The notes beneath the pieces were generated by a model that searched no databases, was not told the origin of the DNA, and saw only the letters and a list, made by a program, of their open reading frames with translations. The position numbers were made by a program, and so were the translations under genes. DNA of 53,577 bases from a virus. Its lineage: Duplodnaviria > Heunggongvirae > Uroviricota > Caudoviricetes. Below are positions 3,969 to 42,643 of this stretch, piece after piece (the stretch's first letter is position 1; each line of letters starts with the position of its first letter). The stretch lies in the IMG/VR virus record IMGVR_UViG_2541047877_000006, one strand, 5' to 3'.

Positions 3969-5087
3969 TTACAAAATGGAATATTCAGGGTAATAAACAA
4001 AGCGCCCGATTTCTCCATGATCCGGGCTGTAAATAATCACCGCTGCCAGCCGCCGCGACCGCCAACCACCATTCGTTGAATAAGCGTCTTTGCCAGCTAA
4101 CGTGCCGTGATACTCAACAACGCCTAACGATGACTCAATCAGCCGTTGATGATGCCAGTGCCCGCAATGAGCGTAAACAGCCGCAGATTTACCGAAATCT
4201 TCCCGCCAGTCAGATACGCAGGCCGCCAACAAGTTTTCCGGTTTTTTGATAGTATGACCGTGATGATATGCAAGGAATGTTTTGCCGTACTGTGTGTGGT
4301 GGACGATAGCAGGGGACACGTCAACCGTCACGCGCGGTTCATCTTCATAAAAAGCCGCCAGCGCCGCACGTAGCCAGATCATCCCTGATTGGTCGTGATT
4401 ACCGGATAATGTCTGGATCTCGACATCCTTATGATTTAGTAACATCTTCCCGACCGCACGCCGGACCGACCGGATCGCCACGTAAACCAGTTTTGCGTAG
4501 CGTGAATCGCAATCCAGGACGTGATTGCTTGATGGCGTCACTGGTAACAGGCCGTCAGTGTGAAGCACATCACCGCCGAGAAGTAAAACAGCCTTTTCAG
4601 ACATTGGCGCAGCGCCTACCGCGTAGTCGAAGAAATCATTTAGCACGCGTTCAGCGATCCCGGTGTCGTAGCTTTCGCCGCATTCAGCTTTATGAGCAAG
4701 CGCCCCGATATGTAGATCGAATACCGGATAAAGGGCCAGGCTTTTTTGGAAATCAATTTCCGGCACTGGCACGGCCTCCGCGCGTGGCATATCTTCCGTG
4801 AAAGCATCGCAAGCCGCTTGCATTAGCCTTTCCATTTCATCGCGATCACGGGCTGTTTTAATCCAGCGCATAATCACATTGCCATCCTTATCGACGAGCA
4901 AAGACTCACCATTGATGCCAAAACCAGGCGCGCGACGCGTGGATATTAAACCGCGCTTTGCCAATCGTGCGCCCAGGCGTTCGACGTTGCGTTTTGCCAT
5001 TCCATATTCTTCGGCTATTTGCTTGTAAGTTTTCCCATTGTTGTATTCAGCGATTAATTGCTCGTCGCTGATCTTTCTTTGCGACAT
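3969..5087 (-). CDS. HTH domain fused to calcineurin-like metallophosphoesterase
   Basis: N-terminal HTH (KTYKQIAEEYGMAKRNVERL); C-terminal motifs DLHIG, GGDVLH, GNHD, GHWHH (Mre11/SbcD-like set). Confidence 0.6.
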   Translation of the reverse strand: MSQRKISDEQLIAEYNNGKTYKQIAEEYGMAKRNVERLGARLAKRGLISTRRAPGFGINGESLLVDKDGNVIMRWIKTARDRDEMERLMQAACDAFTEDMPRAEAVPVPEIDFQKSLALYPVFDLHIGALAHKAECGESYDTGIAERVLNDFFDYAVGAAPMSEKAVLLLGGDVLHTDGLLPVTPSSNHVLDCDSRYAKLVYVAIRSVRRAVGKMLLNHKDVEIQTLSGNHDQSGMIWLRAALAAFYEDEPRVTVDVSPAIVHHTQYGKTFLAYHHGHTIKKPENLLAACVSDWREDFGKSAAVYAHCGHWHHQRLIESSLGVVEYHGTLAGKDAYSTNGGWRSRRLAAVIIYSPDHGEIGRFVYYPEYSIL

Positions 5088-8196: not shown

Positions 8197-8844
8197 ATGA
8201 AAACAAAATGGTATGACTTAGCAAAGCAGCTCATGCGGGCGCAGGGCATGAGCCAGGATTCACTCGCGGATCGTATGGGGATAACTAAAGGCGGCCTGTC
8301 ACACTGGCTGAACGGTCGCCGAGAGCCAAATCTTGAAGATATTGCGCGGATTATGCGCGAGCTTGGTCGTCGGCAGTTTACTGTTACACATGATGGCATG
8401 GTCATTGATGATTCTGTTTCTAATACACTTCAGGCCGTGCCGCCGCGTGATTTAGGTAGTTACCCGGTTATTGACTGGAAGGACACAGTAAACAATATGG
8501 ATGACGCAAGGCGTTCAGCATTACGACACGTTACGACTAGCGTTATTTGTTCAGATGACAGTTACTGGCTGGTTGCCAAAGGTGAATCAATGAACGCGCC
8601 GCAGGGGTTGAGCATCCCGGCGGGGACGATGATACTTGTGGACCCGCACGCGCCAGCTATTGACGGCAAACTGGTTATAGCCCAGCTTGAGGAAGGGCAG
8701 ATACCGACGTTTAAACAGTTGATTATTGATGGAGGTCAAAGGCTTTTACGTTCGCTCAATCCGCTGTATCCGCCAATCCCTATGAATCCAGAATCAAAAA
8801 TTATAGGCGTGGTGGTTGATGCGAAGATCGTAAACCTGCCATAA
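8197..8844 (+). CDS. cI: CI-like repressor (HTH-XRE plus S24 LexA-like peptidase)
   Basis: 215 aa; N-terminal HTH (MSQDSLADRMGITKGGLSHWLNGRREP); C-terminal GESM serine and lysine of S24 autopeptidases. Confidence 0.8.
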   Translation: MKTKWYDLAKQLMRAQGMSQDSLADRMGITKGGLSHWLNGRREPNLEDIARIMRELGRRQFTVTHDGMVIDDSVSNTLQAVPPRDLGSYPVIDWKDTVNNMDDARRSALRHVTTSVICSDDSYWLVAKGESMNAPQGLSIPAGTMILVDPHAPAIDGKLVIAQLEEGQIPTFKQLIIDGGQRLLRSLNPLYPPIPMNPESKIIGVVVDAKIVNLP

Positions 8845-13007: not shown

Positions 13008-13106
13008 CAGCGTGATTGCGATCACATAAATATACATTTTGTATTGTGATTGCATATCCGTTTTGTAAGCCGAAATCAAAAGGTTTACGGTGCGGAGGAA
13101 AACAAG

Positions 13107-16404: not shown

Positions 16405-16420
16405 TGTGATGCGGATCACA
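16405..16420. promoter_or_regulatory. CRP-box-like palindrome
   Basis: TGTGATGCGGATCACA matches TGTGA-N6-TCACA; flanked by inverted TACAAAATGG copies. Confidence 0.4.
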
Positions 16421-21660: not shown

Positions 21661-21774
21661 GGCGTTGGACAACCATAAATGTGATCTGTATCACAATGTA
21701 TACGAAATGGCATTGTTTCGACAGTGCCATTTTGTTATATATAAGCCACGGAAAGACGGAGGGGAGGCAAGAAG

Positions 21775-37263: not shown

Positions 37264-37923
37264 TTAATTCCAGTTGCAAGCGTTTTTCACTTTGTCGATG
37301 TGGTTATAAAGACCATCAATGTTAAACACTGCTTTCTCAATGTCGCCAGCTTCCGGCACTACTTCAATGATGAATTGTTTTTCGTTAACCAGTTTTTTAA
37401 TCATTGGGATGGCTTTTTTGCCGTCCCATAATCCAAGAGCTTTATAATTAGTTGACCGCCACCACTCAGTAGCTACAGCTTTGTGAACGCCGATCCGGTA
37501 GTTAATATAAGTAGTGTCCCCGGCGTCAGTTACATGGTGTGACCATGCTACGAACATTTTTGTTTTATTACCCTGGCAAGCGATTGTTAATACCGGTTTA
37601 TTCTTATCCTGTGCCTTCAGTGTCGGGAAAGCATCAAGACTTCCGCTGAATTGTTCTGCTTTCACAAAAAGGAATACGTTTTTTGCGTCCTGCATATCAT
37701 CTTTTCTTTCAACTACAAGCCACTGTTTACCAGCATTTTCTTTTTCTAACTGTGCATCGTATGCGGCTTGTTTTGCTTGTTGTTCTGCAAGCCATTTAGC
37801 ATTTTTCTCTGCTAATGCTTGTTGCTCTTGATTGGTCACTATAGGCGCTTTTTCATTATCCTCATTGCAACCAACCAGACCCAATACCGCCGCAATCATT
37901 GCCACTTTTGCTAACCGTTTCAT
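37264..37923 (-). CDS. lipoprotein of unknown function (219 aa)
   Basis: Signal peptide with lipobox LVGC; Q/A/K-rich region then globular domain; own promoter. Confidence 0.5.
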   Translation of the reverse strand: MKRLAKVAMIAAVLGLVGCNEDNEKAPIVTNQEQQALAEKNAKWLAEQQAKQAAYDAQLEKENAGKQWLVVERKDDMQDAKNVFLFVKAEQFSGSLDAFPTLKAQDKNKPVLTIACQGNKTKMFVAWSHHVTDAGDTTYINYRIGVHKAVATEWWRSTNYKALGLWDGKKAIPMIKKLVNEKQFIIEVVPEAGDIEKAVFNIDGLYNHIDKVKNACNWN

Positions 37924-38050: not shown

Positions 38051-40393
38051 ATGGCTACCAGTGTAGGTACAATTTATTACGAAGTTGATGCGAAAACTGG
38101 TCAACTTCTCGTTGCACAACGACAGGCAGACCAGGCCTTTGATCGTATAGAGCGCGGCGCAAAACAGGCTGACCGCCAGGTAAACACCCTGAAAACATCC
38201 ATCAAGGCACTGACCAGGGTTATCCATCTGCTAATTGCTGCGGAGGCTGTGCGCCAATTTATGGATATGGCGGAGCAAGCAAAAATGCTTCGCGTAAAAA
38301 TCAAAATGCTTACGGGCGATGCGGAGTCCGCCGGACGGGTTTTCGACGGCCTGAAAGCAATATCCAGGGAGACGGGGCAGAGCCTGAAAGATACTGGCGA
38401 ATTATGGCAAGGCCTGGCTATCTCACTAAAAAACACCTCCGCTACGGAAGGGCAATTGCTTAACCTGGTTGGCACTATTCAGAAAATGGGTGCATTAGGC
38501 GGCGCGTCAGCGGAACAGATGTCTAACTCAATGCGTCAATTCCGTCAGTCTATCGACGGCGGTGTTCTTCGTGCCGAAGAATTTAACAGCCTGCTTGAAA
38601 ATACGCCGACCATCGTACAAACAATGGCCCGCCATATGGGATTATCAATGGGCCAGTTCCGCGCCGAAATGCTGGACGGCAAGATCACGGCTGAAAGGAT
38701 GGTTAACGCAATACAGGCGGCTACGCAGGAAACAAACGATAAGTTTGCTCAGTTGCCGCGCACATCCGGCATGGCTATCAATGAGCTTAAAGTAGAAATT
38801 ATGGGCCTTGTTGAGCAGTTGGATGATCTTTTTGGCGTGTCAGATGGCGTTGTTTCAGCTATCGACTTGATCACGAAAGGCGTTAAAGGGCTTGGCGATG
38901 GCGCTAAATTCGCTAAAACCTGCTTCGACACACTCAAAACGGCTGGTAGCGAATTTATCGACATGTTTGATGATGTGGCTGTTAAGGCTGGAGAGGTGGC
39001 AGAGAAGATCATCGCAATGGTGACGCCAATCAAGGCGCTAATGGATGGCTATAAATGGATGAAGGAGGTAGTAGGAGAGCAAACCGACGAATATAACAGC
39101 AACTACGAGAAGAAATACGGGAAGACCGTTGGCAAGGTCATGCAACTACAGGATGATCTGACCGCAGCAATCCAGGCTACAGAAGAAGCAAGGAAAAATG
39201 AACAGAATGCTGCCAATGACGGAGCGATTACCGGATTCGACAAGCCAGTAGACAAGCCGAAAAAACAGAAAAAAGAGAAGAAATCGGAAGCTGATCGGCT
39301 TGGTGACAAAGGTATAAGCGTTTCTGATCAGTACAACAAAGACGCCGCCGCCATGCGCAAAGCGTTGGAGAACGGCAAGGCCATTGATGCTGCATTTGCC
39401 CAGGGTAAAATCACGCTCCTTGAGTACCGCGCCGCGCAAAAAGGGATCGGCAAGGAACTGAAAGAAGAATTAGCACAAATTCCGGTAGATGAATTGCGTG
39501 ATAAATGGTCACAAATAGTAAGCCCGATGGATCAGCTAAAAGGCGAAGTTGACCCCATCCAGCAGGCGCAAAATGAATGGGCCATCCGTAAGCAAATGCT
39601 TATAGACCTGGGCGCTACTGAAGCGCAACAGAAACAGGAATTGTTAGCCTATGAGCAACAGATCCGCGATCTGAAATGGGAACAATGGCAGGCGCAAAGC
39701 GACACAAACGGCCTTATCGGTGATTGTGTTAATGGCCTTAAAGGCGGAATGAGTAATGCGCTTGTTGGCCTGTTAAACGGCACTCAATCATTGAGTGATG
39801 TTTTTGCTAACTTAGGAAGCAATATACTCGGCAATATCGGTAACAGACTCTCAGACATAGCTGCAAACTGGATAGCAGATCAGATCATGATGGAGACACA
39901 AAGCAAGGCCACGCAAACAAGTACAACAGCAAGCGCGGTAGCAGCTCAGGGAAGCATTGCTGCGGCGGCGGCCCCAGCAGCGGCGGCAACTGCGGCGTCA
40001 ACTGGCGGTAGCTGGGCGGCGGCTGGTTCGGCGGCGCTCACTGCGATCATGTCGCTGGCTACGTCAATTTTCGGCGGCGGTCGCTTTAATGGTGGTAGCG
40101 TCATTGGTGGTAATATGTACCGCGTAGGGGAACACAACAGGCCGGAGCTATTCCAGACATCTAACGGCAATCAATATATGATCCCTGGCGAGAACGGCAG
40201 AGTTATTCCGGGCCGTGATATTGGCGGCGGTGGCGGTATTAGTATGCCTGTCAGTATCAGCATTCAGACCACGAACGGATTCAGCGACGAAGACAGCCGC
40301 AGACTTGAATTAACAATGGAACGTGTAGCCATGAAAATGATAACAAGGGAATCTCAAAGACCAGGCGGAATGTTGCAACCTCGCCGCAAATAA
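38051..40393 (+). CDS. tail tape measure protein
   Basis: 780 aa; coiled-coil and Ala/Gly-rich repeats; between chaperone and M-like gene. Confidence 0.85.
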   Translation: MATSVGTIYYEVDAKTGQLLVAQRQADQAFDRIERGAKQADRQVNTLKTSIKALTRVIHLLIAAEAVRQFMDMAEQAKMLRVKIKMLTGDAESAGRVFDGLKAISRETGQSLKDTGELWQGLAISLKNTSATEGQLLNLVGTIQKMGALGGASAEQMSNSMRQFRQSIDGGVLRAEEFNSLLENTPTIVQTMARHMGLSMGQFRAEMLDGKITAERMVNAIQAATQETNDKFAQLPRTSGMAINELKVEIMGLVEQLDDLFGVSDGVVSAIDLITKGVKGLGDGAKFAKTCFDTLKTAGSEFIDMFDDVAVKAGEVAEKIIAMVTPIKALMDGYKWMKEVVGEQTDEYNSNYEKKYGKTVGKVMQLQDDLTAAIQATEEARKNEQNAANDGAITGFDKPVDKPKKQKKEKKSEADRLGDKGISVSDQYNKDAAAMRKALENGKAIDAAFAQGKITLLEYRAAQKGIGKELKEELAQIPVDELRDKWSQIVSPMDQLKGEVDPIQQAQNEWAIRKQMLIDLGATEAQQKQELLAYEQQIRDLKWEQWQAQSDTNGLIGDCVNGLKGGMSNALVGLLNGTQSLSDVFANLGSNILGNIGNRLSDIAANWIADQIMMETQSKATQTSTTASAVAAQGSIAAAAAPAAAATAASTGGSWAAAGSAALTAIMSLATSIFGGGRFNGGSVIGGNMYRVGEHNRPELFQTSNGNQYMIPGENGRVIPGRDIGGGGGISMPVSISIQTTNGFSDEDSRRLELTMERVAMKMITRESQRPGGMLQPRRK

Positions 40394-40398
40394 ACTAA

Positions 40399-40426
40399 AC
40401 CCCGGTGCAATGCCGGGGTTATTTTT
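40399..40426 (+). terminator. rho-independent terminator after tape measure gene
   Basis: ACCCCGG tgcaatg CCGGGGT hairpin followed by TATTTTT. Confidence 0.65.
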
Positions 40427-40479
40427 CGTATTTATAAACGACCATTCCGCGCGATATATCCCCTTTCGAATATCTCGAC

Positions 40480-40734
40480 TCACTTATGAGTGCCTTTCAC
40501 GCCACATAACTTGTTATAGGCATGGTGCTCAACAATTAACCAAACCTTCAAATCTTCGCTAAACAGCCTCCAATCAAGATTGATATCCATTTTGTATCCG
40601 TAACCGTCGCGTAACTTTTTGGGGTAAACTTCTTTTCTCAGAAAGGCTTTAAGTAATTCCTTACCTTTCTTGATGATCCGGTCCTGTGCGTTTTTCTGTG
40701 CTTTCAGATTTCTGTCAATCGCTACCAGTTTCAT
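40480..40734 (-). CDS. small basic protein (84 aa), second gene of minus-strand cassette
   Basis: MKLVAIDRNLKAQKNAQDRIIKKGK...; 14 nt downstream of 51-aa partner. Confidence 0.45.
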   Translation of the reverse strand: MKLVAIDRNLKAQKNAQDRIIKKGKELLKAFLRKEVYPKKLRDGYGYKMDINLDWRLFSEDLKVWLIVEHHAYNKLCGVKGTHK

Positions 40735-40751
40735 AACTCACCCCATCATCC

Positions 40752-40907
40752 TTAGTTAAGTGCCTTCAGGAAGAAGTCCCGGTATTCATCTTCTTTCGCA
40801 TTCATCATGAATTGACCGTATTTGAATGCGTCGTCGAAACCCTTAACGATTGCTATTTCCACTTGTTCGAATGCGTTATTTAGCATTACTACTACATAGC
40901 GTTTCAT
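40752..40907 (-). CDS. small protein (51 aa), first gene of minus-strand cassette
   Basis: MKRYVVVMLNNAFEQVEIAIVKGFDDAFKYGQFMMNAKEDEYRDFFLKALN; AGGAGG SD. Confidence 0.4.
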   Translation of the reverse strand: MKRYVVVMLNNAFEQVEIAIVKGFDDAFKYGQFMMNAKEDEYRDFFLKALN

Positions 40908-40947
40908 TTTGGGCCTCCTTCGTTGGTACTACTTTCTTCTTGCTTTC

Positions 40948-40987
40948 TATATACATCTTGTTGCGTGCTATGTGAAGCCATTTTGTA
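40948..40987 (-). promoter_or_regulatory. sigma70-like promoter for minus-strand cassette, with TACAAAATGG element
   Basis: Minus strand: GTTTACAAAATGG then -35 TTCACA, 17-nt spacer, -10 TATATA. Confidence 0.45.
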
Positions 40988-41017
40988 AACTAGCTATAAT
41001 CATTGTGACAATGATCT

Positions 41018-41042: not shown

Positions 41043-41076
41043 GATATATACAAAATGTAACTTGTGGGGGGGTTTT

Positions 41077-41430
41077 ATGCCGGAAGTGTTCAGATGGACG
41101 CCGCAAAGAAGCTACAGCGTGACCAGGAAGCCAGACGTATCTGTTGTTAAGCTGGGCGATGGTTATGAGCAAAGACAGGTAAAAGGTATCAATCCATTGC
41201 TTGATAGCTACACCCTGGTGTTTAAAGGCAGTAGCGCCGGATGTGGTGATGGTGGAAACGTAGCAATCCAGGCGGAAGCATTCTTGAGGGCGCGCGGCGC
41301 GGTCGAGGCTTTTTACTGGTCGCCGTCAATGGATAACGTGCAAAGGCTTTTTGTCTGTCGGCAATGGAGCATGACTAAAGACGGGCCTTTGTACACGCTA
41401 AACGCAACGTTTGAGCAAGTTGTTGGCTAA
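41077..41430 (+). CDS. M: minor tail protein M
   Basis: FRW...V.FGDGY.QR...G.N....Y...F and C-terminal FEQVV as in lambda gpM. Confidence 0.85.
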   Translation: MPEVFRWTPQRSYSVTRKPDVSVVKLGDGYEQRQVKGINPLLDSYTLVFKGSSAGCGDGGNVAIQAEAFLRARGAVEAFYWSPSMDNVQRLFVCRQWSMTKDGPLYTLNATFEQVVG

Positions 41431-41627: not shown

Positions 41628-41633
41628 ACACGA

Positions 41634-41658
41634 CCCCGCGCGAAGCGGGGTTATTTTT
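41634..41658. terminator. rho-independent terminator, possibly bidirectional
   Basis: CCCCGC gcgaa GCGGGG hairpin with T-run after and A-run before; between convergent genes. Confidence 0.6.
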
Positions 41659-41783: not shown

Positions 41784-42032
41784 CTATAAGTTATCACGCA
41801 GATAATTAACGCCCTTATCAGTGACGAATGAATGGTTAACCTGGTTTTCATCCGTCATGATGATGAATAACTTTTCATGTAGGTATTTCGCTTTCGGGTA
41901 CAGCGTTAAACAGACCTGGTACAGTATCCCGCGCTCAATCAGCAAATCAATAAATTCGTGTTCATGATAACCGATGAGGCGGGCGGCCTGTTTCAACGTG
42001 TACACATAATCACCGTGATTGCGCCGCCCCAT
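41784..42032 (-). CDS. HTH-like DNA-binding protein (82 aa), third gene of cassette
   Basis: YTLKQAARLIGYHEHEFIDLLIERGIL resembles HTH; AAGG SD; 9 nt after gene B stop. Confidence 0.45.
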   Translation of the reverse strand: MGRRNHGDYVYTLKQAARLIGYHEHEFIDLLIERGILYQVCLTLYPKAKYLHEKLFIIMTDENQVNHSFVTDKGVNYLRDNL

Positions 42033-42041
42033 GTTGCCGCC

Positions 42042-42389
42042 TTATTTATCGAATGCTAAAAGGTTATCGATACAGAAATCTTTCGCCGCTTTTTCGTATT
42101 CGCGTTTTGCTTCTGGATCGTCAGCCGGGAAACCTTTTGCGTGTATTTCACCAGGGCAAGACTGGTCCATAGAATCTGCATAATAAGCAGTGAAGCTACC
42201 ATTAATATCTTTCGGGTTCATATCTTCCACCTCATCAACTATATGTACCGGATTAGCAGCATATTTCACTGGATGGCCTAAACTACATTCAAGAATCCTG
42301 CCTTCTTCCAGGGCTACTTCTTCGCTATCAAATAATCCGAAACACTCCTTGCTACCACTTAACCACACATCAAGACTGTATTTTTTCAT
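42042..42389 (-). CDS. acidic protein (115 aa), second gene of cassette
   Basis: ATG 42389 with GAGG SD; acidic; overlaps first gene by 20 nt. Confidence 0.45.
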   Translation of the reverse strand: MKKYSLDVWLSGSKECFGLFDSEEVALEEGRILECSLGHPVKYAANPVHIVDEVEDMNPKDINGSFTAYYADSMDQSCPGEIHAKGFPADDPEAKREYEKAAKDFCIDNLLAFDK

Positions 42390-42558
42390 TTTTGTTAGCC
42401 TCATATTTGACAGGTTCGATCTGGTATCCCAAAAGGCGGTCATCCTCAGCAAGTAAAAGCGCGTCAACCAATGCTTCACCCTCGTCGTCATACAGGGCGA
42501 TAACCTTTTCCCTACCGTCTGTCATGAATACCGTCAACTTCCATAGCTTTTCAGTCAT
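42370..42558 (-). CDS. small acidic protein (62 aa), first gene of cassette
   Basis: MTEKLWKLTVFMTDGREKVIALYDDEGEALVDALLLAEDDRLLGYQIEPVKYEANKNEKIQS; GGAGGTG SD. Confidence 0.45.
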   Translation of the reverse strand: MTEKLWKLTVFMTDGREKVIALYDDEGEALVDALLLAEDDRLLGYQIEPVKYEANKNEKIQS

Positions 42559-42604
42559 AACGCACCTCCGCGCCATTTTGTTAACTATGCTTCCGTTTGA
42601 GTAA

Positions 42605-42643
42605 AATATACATATTGTAAAAACCGCGATCAATCCATTTTGG
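42605..42643 (-). promoter_or_regulatory. sigma70-like promoter for three-gene cassette
   Basis: Minus strand: CCAAAATGGA then -35 TTGATC, 17-nt spacer, -10 TATATT; same layout as pL-like promoter. Confidence 0.5.

Follow-up and report, generated by a model that had tools for sequence, protein, structure and literature searches.

A PF24732 (ParE_like) protein and its 51-residue candidate partner in an accessory operon between the tape-measure and M genes of mEpimmI phages

The described systems closest to the locus analysed here are type II toxin-antitoxin pairs with a toxin of the RelE/ParE superfamily, namely HigB-HigA, DinJ-YafQ, RelBE, YefM-YoeB and ParDE. We have analysed a phage sequence of 53,577 nucleotides (IMG/VR record IMGVR_UViG_2541047877_000006; the whole stretch is called the window below), in which two minus-strand genes between the tape-measure gene and gene M encode a protein of 51 aa (A) followed by a protein of 84 aa (T). 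Unlike the toxins of the five systems mentioned, T has no sequence-level match to their families, and A, with only 51 aa, contains no DNA-binding domain of the RHH, HTH, AbrB or Phd type and matches no antitoxin family. Furthermore, T is kept without its partner in some genomes, which distinguishes the locus from the type II systems of this superfamily. In PaaR2-PaaA2-ParE2 of E. coli O157:H7 (PDB 5czf), a third gene encodes the regulator PaaR2, and the antitoxin is a disordered, helical protein of 63 aa. In contrast, no regulator gene adjoins A or T, A has strand-like segments, and the sequences of the two systems show no similarity.

The second point of comparison is the phage moron, defined as an insert with deviant GC content and its own promoter and terminator (PMC3594210). 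Expression from the prophage is typical of morons located in the tail region, which in many cases confer protection from other phages (PMC3594210; PMC10884400). Two of them, HK97 gp15 and Tab of Pseudomonas prophages, are likewise independent low-GC units among tail genes, with their own promoter and terminator. They differ from the present locus in that their proteins are unrelated to A and T, and in that the A/T cassette has, at its promoter, a motif distributed throughout the phage, including the phage's own regulatory regions.

Gene layout and control region

The window belongs to the mEp021 (mEpimmI) group of temperate siphophages of E. coli, which are reported to be common in the human gut (PMC11893012). 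Over 801 bases at the cassette it matched the phages mEp021, mEp554, mEp010, mEp044, mEp013, mEp515 and MagusPhagus, and it was 99.8-99.9% identical to prophages of complete E. coli genomes, such as that of M1/5. The published description of the mEpimmI group does not discuss this locus, of which the features are the following (positions in the window):

38051-40393, plus strand: tape-measure gene, left flank
40398-40420, both directions: bidirectional hairpin terminator common to the tape-measure gene (plus strand) and the cassette (minus strand)
40480-40734, minus strand: T, basic protein of 84 aa, pI 9.9; PF24732 'ParE_like', predicted RelE/ParE-superfamily fold
40752-40907, minus strand: A, acidic protein of 51 aa, pI 5.1; orphan family phrog_29810, candidate partner or antitoxin of T
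40914-40920, minus strand: Shine-Dalgarno sequence AAGGAGG of the A gene, as read in the sequence and kept in relatives
40948-40976, minus strand: putative promoter, with -35 TTCACA at 40971-40976, a 17-nt spacer and -10 TATATA at 40948-40953
40978-40987, minus strand: TACAAAATGG element, a copy of a phage-wide motif, centred at about -41.5 and lying 1 nt upstream of the -35 hexamer
40999-41015, no strand: ATCATTGTCACAATGAT, a perfect 17-bp palindrome upstream of the TACAAAATGG motif
41049-41058, plus strand: TACAAAATGT, an inverted copy of the motif with one mismatch, found in the motif count, just upstream of the M start
41077-41430, plus strand: gene of minor tail protein M, right flank (Pfam Phage_min_tail, 1.4e-27)

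Both minus-strand reading frames were found where the original prediction had placed them, and the strong Shine-Dalgarno sequence that it had noted ahead of the 51-aa gene is present, conserved in relatives, and ends 6 nt ahead of the first ATG. The gap between A and T, which had been given as 14 nt, measured 17 nt. In the window the operon takes its minimal form, only 83 nt separating the stop codon of T from that of the tape-measure gene. A 57-aa open reading frame with a GTG start (40310-40483) was taken as non-coding; it runs across the terminator and overlaps the last part of the tape-measure gene. The median pairwise dN/dS was 0.04 for A (24 distinct homologous sequences) and 0.07 for T (35 sequences), and we regard both as genuine genes under strong purifying selection. 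No paralogue of A or T was found elsewhere in the window, the similarly sized first gene of a neighbouring cassette being unrelated. An Rfam scan of the cassette returned no RNA family, and there is thus no sign of an RNA antitoxin. With a GC content of 39%, against 50-53% in the flanking tail genes, the terminator at 40398-40420 and conserved predicted promoter blocks, the insert has the features by which morons are defined.

The promoter hexamers proposed in the original prediction are present. Among related phages, a comparison of 43 distinct upstream sequences showed conservation of both hexamer blocks (-35 and -10) and of the 5' leader, with a variable spacer. A scan with the sigma-70 consensus did not call the cassette promoter because its -10 hexamer lacks the final T. 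An autoregulatory operator was considered for the 17-bp palindrome (40999-41015) and rejected, since relatives do not conserve the palindrome.

The TACAAAATGG element proved to be real and phage-wide. The window contains 26 copies with at most one mismatch (11 exact and 15 with one mismatch) for 5.7 expected, a number that was reached in none of 100 shuffles. Few intergenic control regions are without a copy, and inverted pairs with 16-61 nt between the copies are frequent; examples are the sites at 3970, 8114, 8957, 16387/16452, 21701/21727, 37973/37999, 40978/41049, 42573 and 51455. A gene for a CI-like repressor (8197-8844) is flanked by such copies. Probably, the element either binds a phage regulator or belongs to a phage-specific promoter. 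As its copies extend across the control regions of the phage, the cassette appears to be connected to the regulatory circuit of the phage itself. In the paper on the mEpimmI group, the operators of the repressor are undefined and the element is not described. A separate observation concerns a CRP-like palindrome, TGTGAT-N4-ATCACA, which occurs three times in the window (0.17 expected), at 13011-13026, 16405-16420 and 21680-21695, each copy adjoining a TACAAAATGG pair.

The proteins T and A and their relatives

T matched the Pfam family PF24732 (ParE_like toxin domain) over residues 19-75 with an E-value of 9e-12 and a score of 45.3 bits, the gathering cutoff of this family being 24.4 bits. The same family, and nothing else, was matched by all of the 22 aligned relatives of T, and the RefSeq homologue WP_000779577.1 is annotated as 'ParE family toxin-like protein'. 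The statement in the original prediction that neither product is recognisable thus stands for the 51-aa protein and falls for the 84-aa protein. T is covered by the annotation of RefSeq and Pfam; the novelty lies in its partner, in the alleles that lack this partner and in the solo distribution of the family. At the sequence level the T family is narrow, since only 10 of 1.84 billion representatives were hit in an exhaustive HMM search. The PDB, searched with the sequence and the profile of T, gave nothing useful and hence no sequence-level tie to solved toxins; NCBIfam and PADLOC gave no hits for T or A.

The fold of T was predicted with AlphaFold. A model built from close homologues alone reached a pLDDT of 63, gave nothing significant in a Foldseek search of the PDB and was dropped. 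With distant members included in the alignment, the pLDDT was 86.6 and the pTM 0.74. In this model T has a RelE/ParE-superfamily fold, consisting of an N-terminal strand and helix followed by an antiparallel sheet, and its top structural neighbours are all active toxins. Even members with no more than 26% identity have the invariant K40, L41, R56 and H70, and Y/F73 and N74 are nearly invariant in the family, whose members share a length of 69-95 aa and an invariant K-L...R...H pattern. These residues were matched only by eye to R65, H83 and Y84 of YoeB; an alignment of the T family with YoeB by hhalign was not significant, and we therefore claim no equivalence of catalytic residues.

The only match of A was to the uncharacterised family phrog_29810. 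Its homologues form 57 clusters, all at least 76% identical and from E. coli phages, and are confined to phages of the mEpimmI type. Neither A nor its profile matched Pfam, NCBIfam, PADLOC or the PDB, and no antitoxin or DNA-binding signature was found. The usual two-domain antitoxin would not fit into the 51 aa of A, which carries conserved hydrophobic segments that look like strands.

Outside the mEpimmI branch, the PF24732 members that we examined stand alone; only in this branch is there a 51-aa partner. Solo members are found directly upstream of genes for T7-type RNA polymerases, beside a homologue of T7 gp0.4, and in the Kosakonia phage Kc237. A tblastn search found PF24732 relatives in 70 phage records; the best matches listed all belong to Rak2-like jumbo phages of about 350 kb. 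In the Pantoea agglomerans plasmid pFC61912-B_E, which has a backbone of the ICEclc/SPI-7 type, a solo gene (L130, 2501-2749) stands right after the pair ParB-DUF2857; its product has the best Pfam score among the members examined (73.5 bits). In ICEclc, the counterpart of ParB-DUF2857 is the activator pair BisD/BisC (PMC7423338). The loci with solo genes comprise, besides L130, L103/L104, L102, L005 and L100; protein P0101 gave no match in the plasmid collection. None of the neighbours of the solo genes examined resembles A or any antitoxin. Judged from these genomic contexts, PF24732 seems to be restricted to mobile elements (temperate and virulent phages, ICEs) and mostly devoid of antitoxins.

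Linkage of A to T and cargo of the operon

Of 50 loci from phages or E. coli, 48 have A immediately ahead of T, and so do 23 of 24 loci from metagenomes (71/74 altogether). All of the 42 IMG/VR contigs that carry A also carry T, and A was never found without T. The converse does not hold: in three alleles (L023, L026 and L117) an intact T stands directly behind the same promoter region, separated from it by a short leader. L026 is part of the chromosome of E. coli UMNK88 (identical over the region compared), to which L098 also belongs and of which the genome is complete. In a blastn search for A, 34 of 5426 genomes were positive and UMNK88 was not among them, so that this isolate has no A elsewhere.

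The T proteins encoded without A show no private residues when compared with the A-linked T proteins. The three T genes concerned differ from each other by 7-24 synonymous and 2 nonsynonymous codons, and T is therefore under purifying selection also without A. A gene termed c1 (56-58 aa, pI 9.8) is present about 120 nt downstream of T in each of these alleles, and its product might substitute for A. The leader, promoter and Shine-Dalgarno sequence of the A-less alleles differ from those of the A-containing allele, so that T might be made there at a much lower level. In E. coli MFDS1019527 (L099, 1201-1355), A has a 1-nt deletion at codon 5 (MKRYE*) and T is intact; this could be a natural knockout or a sequencing or assembly error. 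Moreover, T proteins of three lineages, with 67-100% identity to one another, occur with one and the same A sequence; a recombination breakpoint falls within the first ~15 codons of T, and no co-variation between A and T was detected.

In layout, the two genes look like a type II toxin-antitoxin pair, being adjacent and co-oriented, with a gap of 17 nt, one promoter region and one terminator. A recognisable antitoxin or DNA-binding partner, as expected of such a pair, was not found, A having no database match; and intact T genes are kept without A in three alleles, all of them with c1 downstream. An intact T is kept by related phages that lack A, and a classical addiction pair is therefore improbable. 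The original prediction had likened the locus to a toxin-antitoxin operon. This comparison is borne out as far as it concerns a T of toxin fold with a dedicated small partner; it is not supported for an obligate unit, given the A-less alleles, the lack of an antitoxin signature in A and the solo relatives.

The operon was also described in the original prediction as a cassette of two genes, for which a comparison of the tape-measure/M junction among related prophages was proposed. Related phages do differ in their cargo at this junction. In most of them the operon runs on past T with variable small genes, termed c4, c0, c1, c2 (acidic) and c5 (a membrane protein), and it is therefore not a discrete two-gene cassette, the two-gene arrangement being the minimal version found in the window. 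One phage has an HNH endonuclease gene downstream of T (L054, 2941-3249), and mEp021 (L001) has at this place two zinc-ribbon repeat proteins of 157-158 aa (mEp021_65/66). From this comparison, the site downstream of T appears as an insertion hot spot for cargo.

Possible functions of the pair

We favour, with a probability of roughly 45%, the view that T is a mobile-element effector of the RelE/ParE fold, accompanied by a dispensable, antitoxin-like A in a moron under phage-specific control. The cassette would be the conserved, promoter-proximal part of a horizontally acquired accessory operon of the mEpimmI group, transcribed from its own promoter against the late operon and stopping at the terminator common with the tape-measure gene. 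T would be the key product and would arrest growth or translation, more probably as an mRNA nuclease acting at the ribosome, like RelE, HigB, YafQ and YoeB, than as a poison of gyrase. A, translated just ahead of T from their common mRNA, would bind T and temper it in the manner of an antitoxin. We infer the toxicity of T, its target, its binding to A and the time at which both are expressed. A would be an add-on rather than a requirement: because T is carried and selected without it, the pair is toxin-antitoxin-like in its layout and not an obligate addiction module. Tight linkage of A to T and the classical gene order, which match a true type II pair, remain as arguments against this reading.

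The two genes could instead form a classical type II toxin-antitoxin or abortive-infection module, with A as an essential, labile antitoxin and T as a RelE/ParE toxin, which would stabilise the prophage or kill infected cells upon decay of A. This is the reading to which the fold and family of T, the order of a small acidic gene and a basic toxin gene 17 nt apart between a single promoter and terminator, and the position of A upstream of T in about 95% of loci, never alone, would lead. Fragments of T of 47-61 aa in some genomes (for example P0033-P0040 and P0099) are also what the decay of a toxin would give. Yet three diverged alleles keep an intact and selected T without A, one of them in a viable sequenced isolate that has no other copy of A, and MFDS1019527, unless its frameshift is a sequencing error, combines a disrupted A with an intact T. 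Since, in addition, A bears no signature of an antitoxin or of DNA binding, co-variation of A with T is absent, the PF24732 relatives are solo and PADLOC was blank, we think this reading somewhat doubtful. An unlikely reading is that T is no toxin at all, its RelE/ParE fold being reused in a small regulator or accessory factor that binds nucleic acid or protein, with A and the downstream genes as independent functions that share a promoter. T is tolerated alone, and the operon of the relatives is a variable string of unrelated genes (c4, c0, c1, c2, c5, HNH, zinc-ribbon). Among the PF24732 members examined, the one with the highest score is encoded in the regulatory operon of an ICE-type element, together with ParB-DUF2857 (activator of the BisDC type), and others are found among early genes of virulent phages with no partner. 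However, residues typical of catalytic or binding sites (K40, R56, H70, Y/F73, N74) are conserved throughout the family and the top structural neighbours are all active toxins, while the occurrence of A exclusively with T argues that the two are functionally linked.

The genes could also make up an anti-defence operon, the other function to which the locus had been likened, in which A, T or both would block an immune system of the host in the course of infection. Small proteins, one acidic and one basic, encoded in a variable accessory locus would suit such a role, and virulent phages, whose anti-defence genes cluster in the early regions, carry relatives of T in these regions. We consider it quite improbable, as no similarity to known anti-defence proteins or defence components was found in Pfam or PADLOC, and because an own promoter, an orientation opposite to the late operon and a low GC content are typical of prophage-expressed genes, whereas anti-defence genes act on entry. 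A role in tail assembly, or as structural accessory proteins, is suggested by nothing other than the position between the tape-measure and M genes and is scarcely credible. The genes lie on the opposite strand, with their own promoter and terminator and a low GC content; T has a toxin-type fold; relatives are found in non-tail contexts; and the mEpimmI paper, which includes mass spectrometry of virions, makes no mention of mEp021 gp65-gp68. Homology to a tail structural component had been named at the outset as a reason to abandon the idea of a toxin-antitoxin or anti-defence operon, and no link to tail structure was found.

If T is an active effector of the RelE/ParE type that is carried without an antitoxin, toxin folds would serve phages and ICEs as stand-alone tools for the control of the host, beyond addiction and abortive-infection pairs, and A would represent a new, very small class of inhibitors. 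Somewhat speculatively, PF24732 may be a mobile-element-specific branch of RelE/ParE proteins with no dedicated antitoxin, whose members would arrest the host when the element is activated (lytic growth of virulent and temperate phages, transfer competence of ICEs); A, which lacks a DNA-binding domain, would then represent a novel inhibitor of minimal size, added by mEpimmI phages to tune the effector. If the locus is an ordinary toxin-antitoxin module, it would be one more prophage module with an unclassified antitoxin, of modest value and mainly a matter of annotation.

Other minus-strand inserts are present among the tail genes of the window. Just before the tape-measure gene, a gene for a protein of 219 aa (37264-37923) matches VasI and is annotated in RefSeq as type VI secretion system-associated protein TagO; with 41% GC and a promoter region bearing TACAAAATGG, it is another moron-like insert of the tail region. 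Between the gene after M and gene L, a second minus-strand cassette (41784-42556) encodes proteins of 62, 115 and 82 aa, the last of which is KilAC/antirepressor-like. It has a promoter-like site at 42605-42633, a copy of the motif at 42573 and a bidirectional terminator at 41632-41652, and its content varies among relatives.
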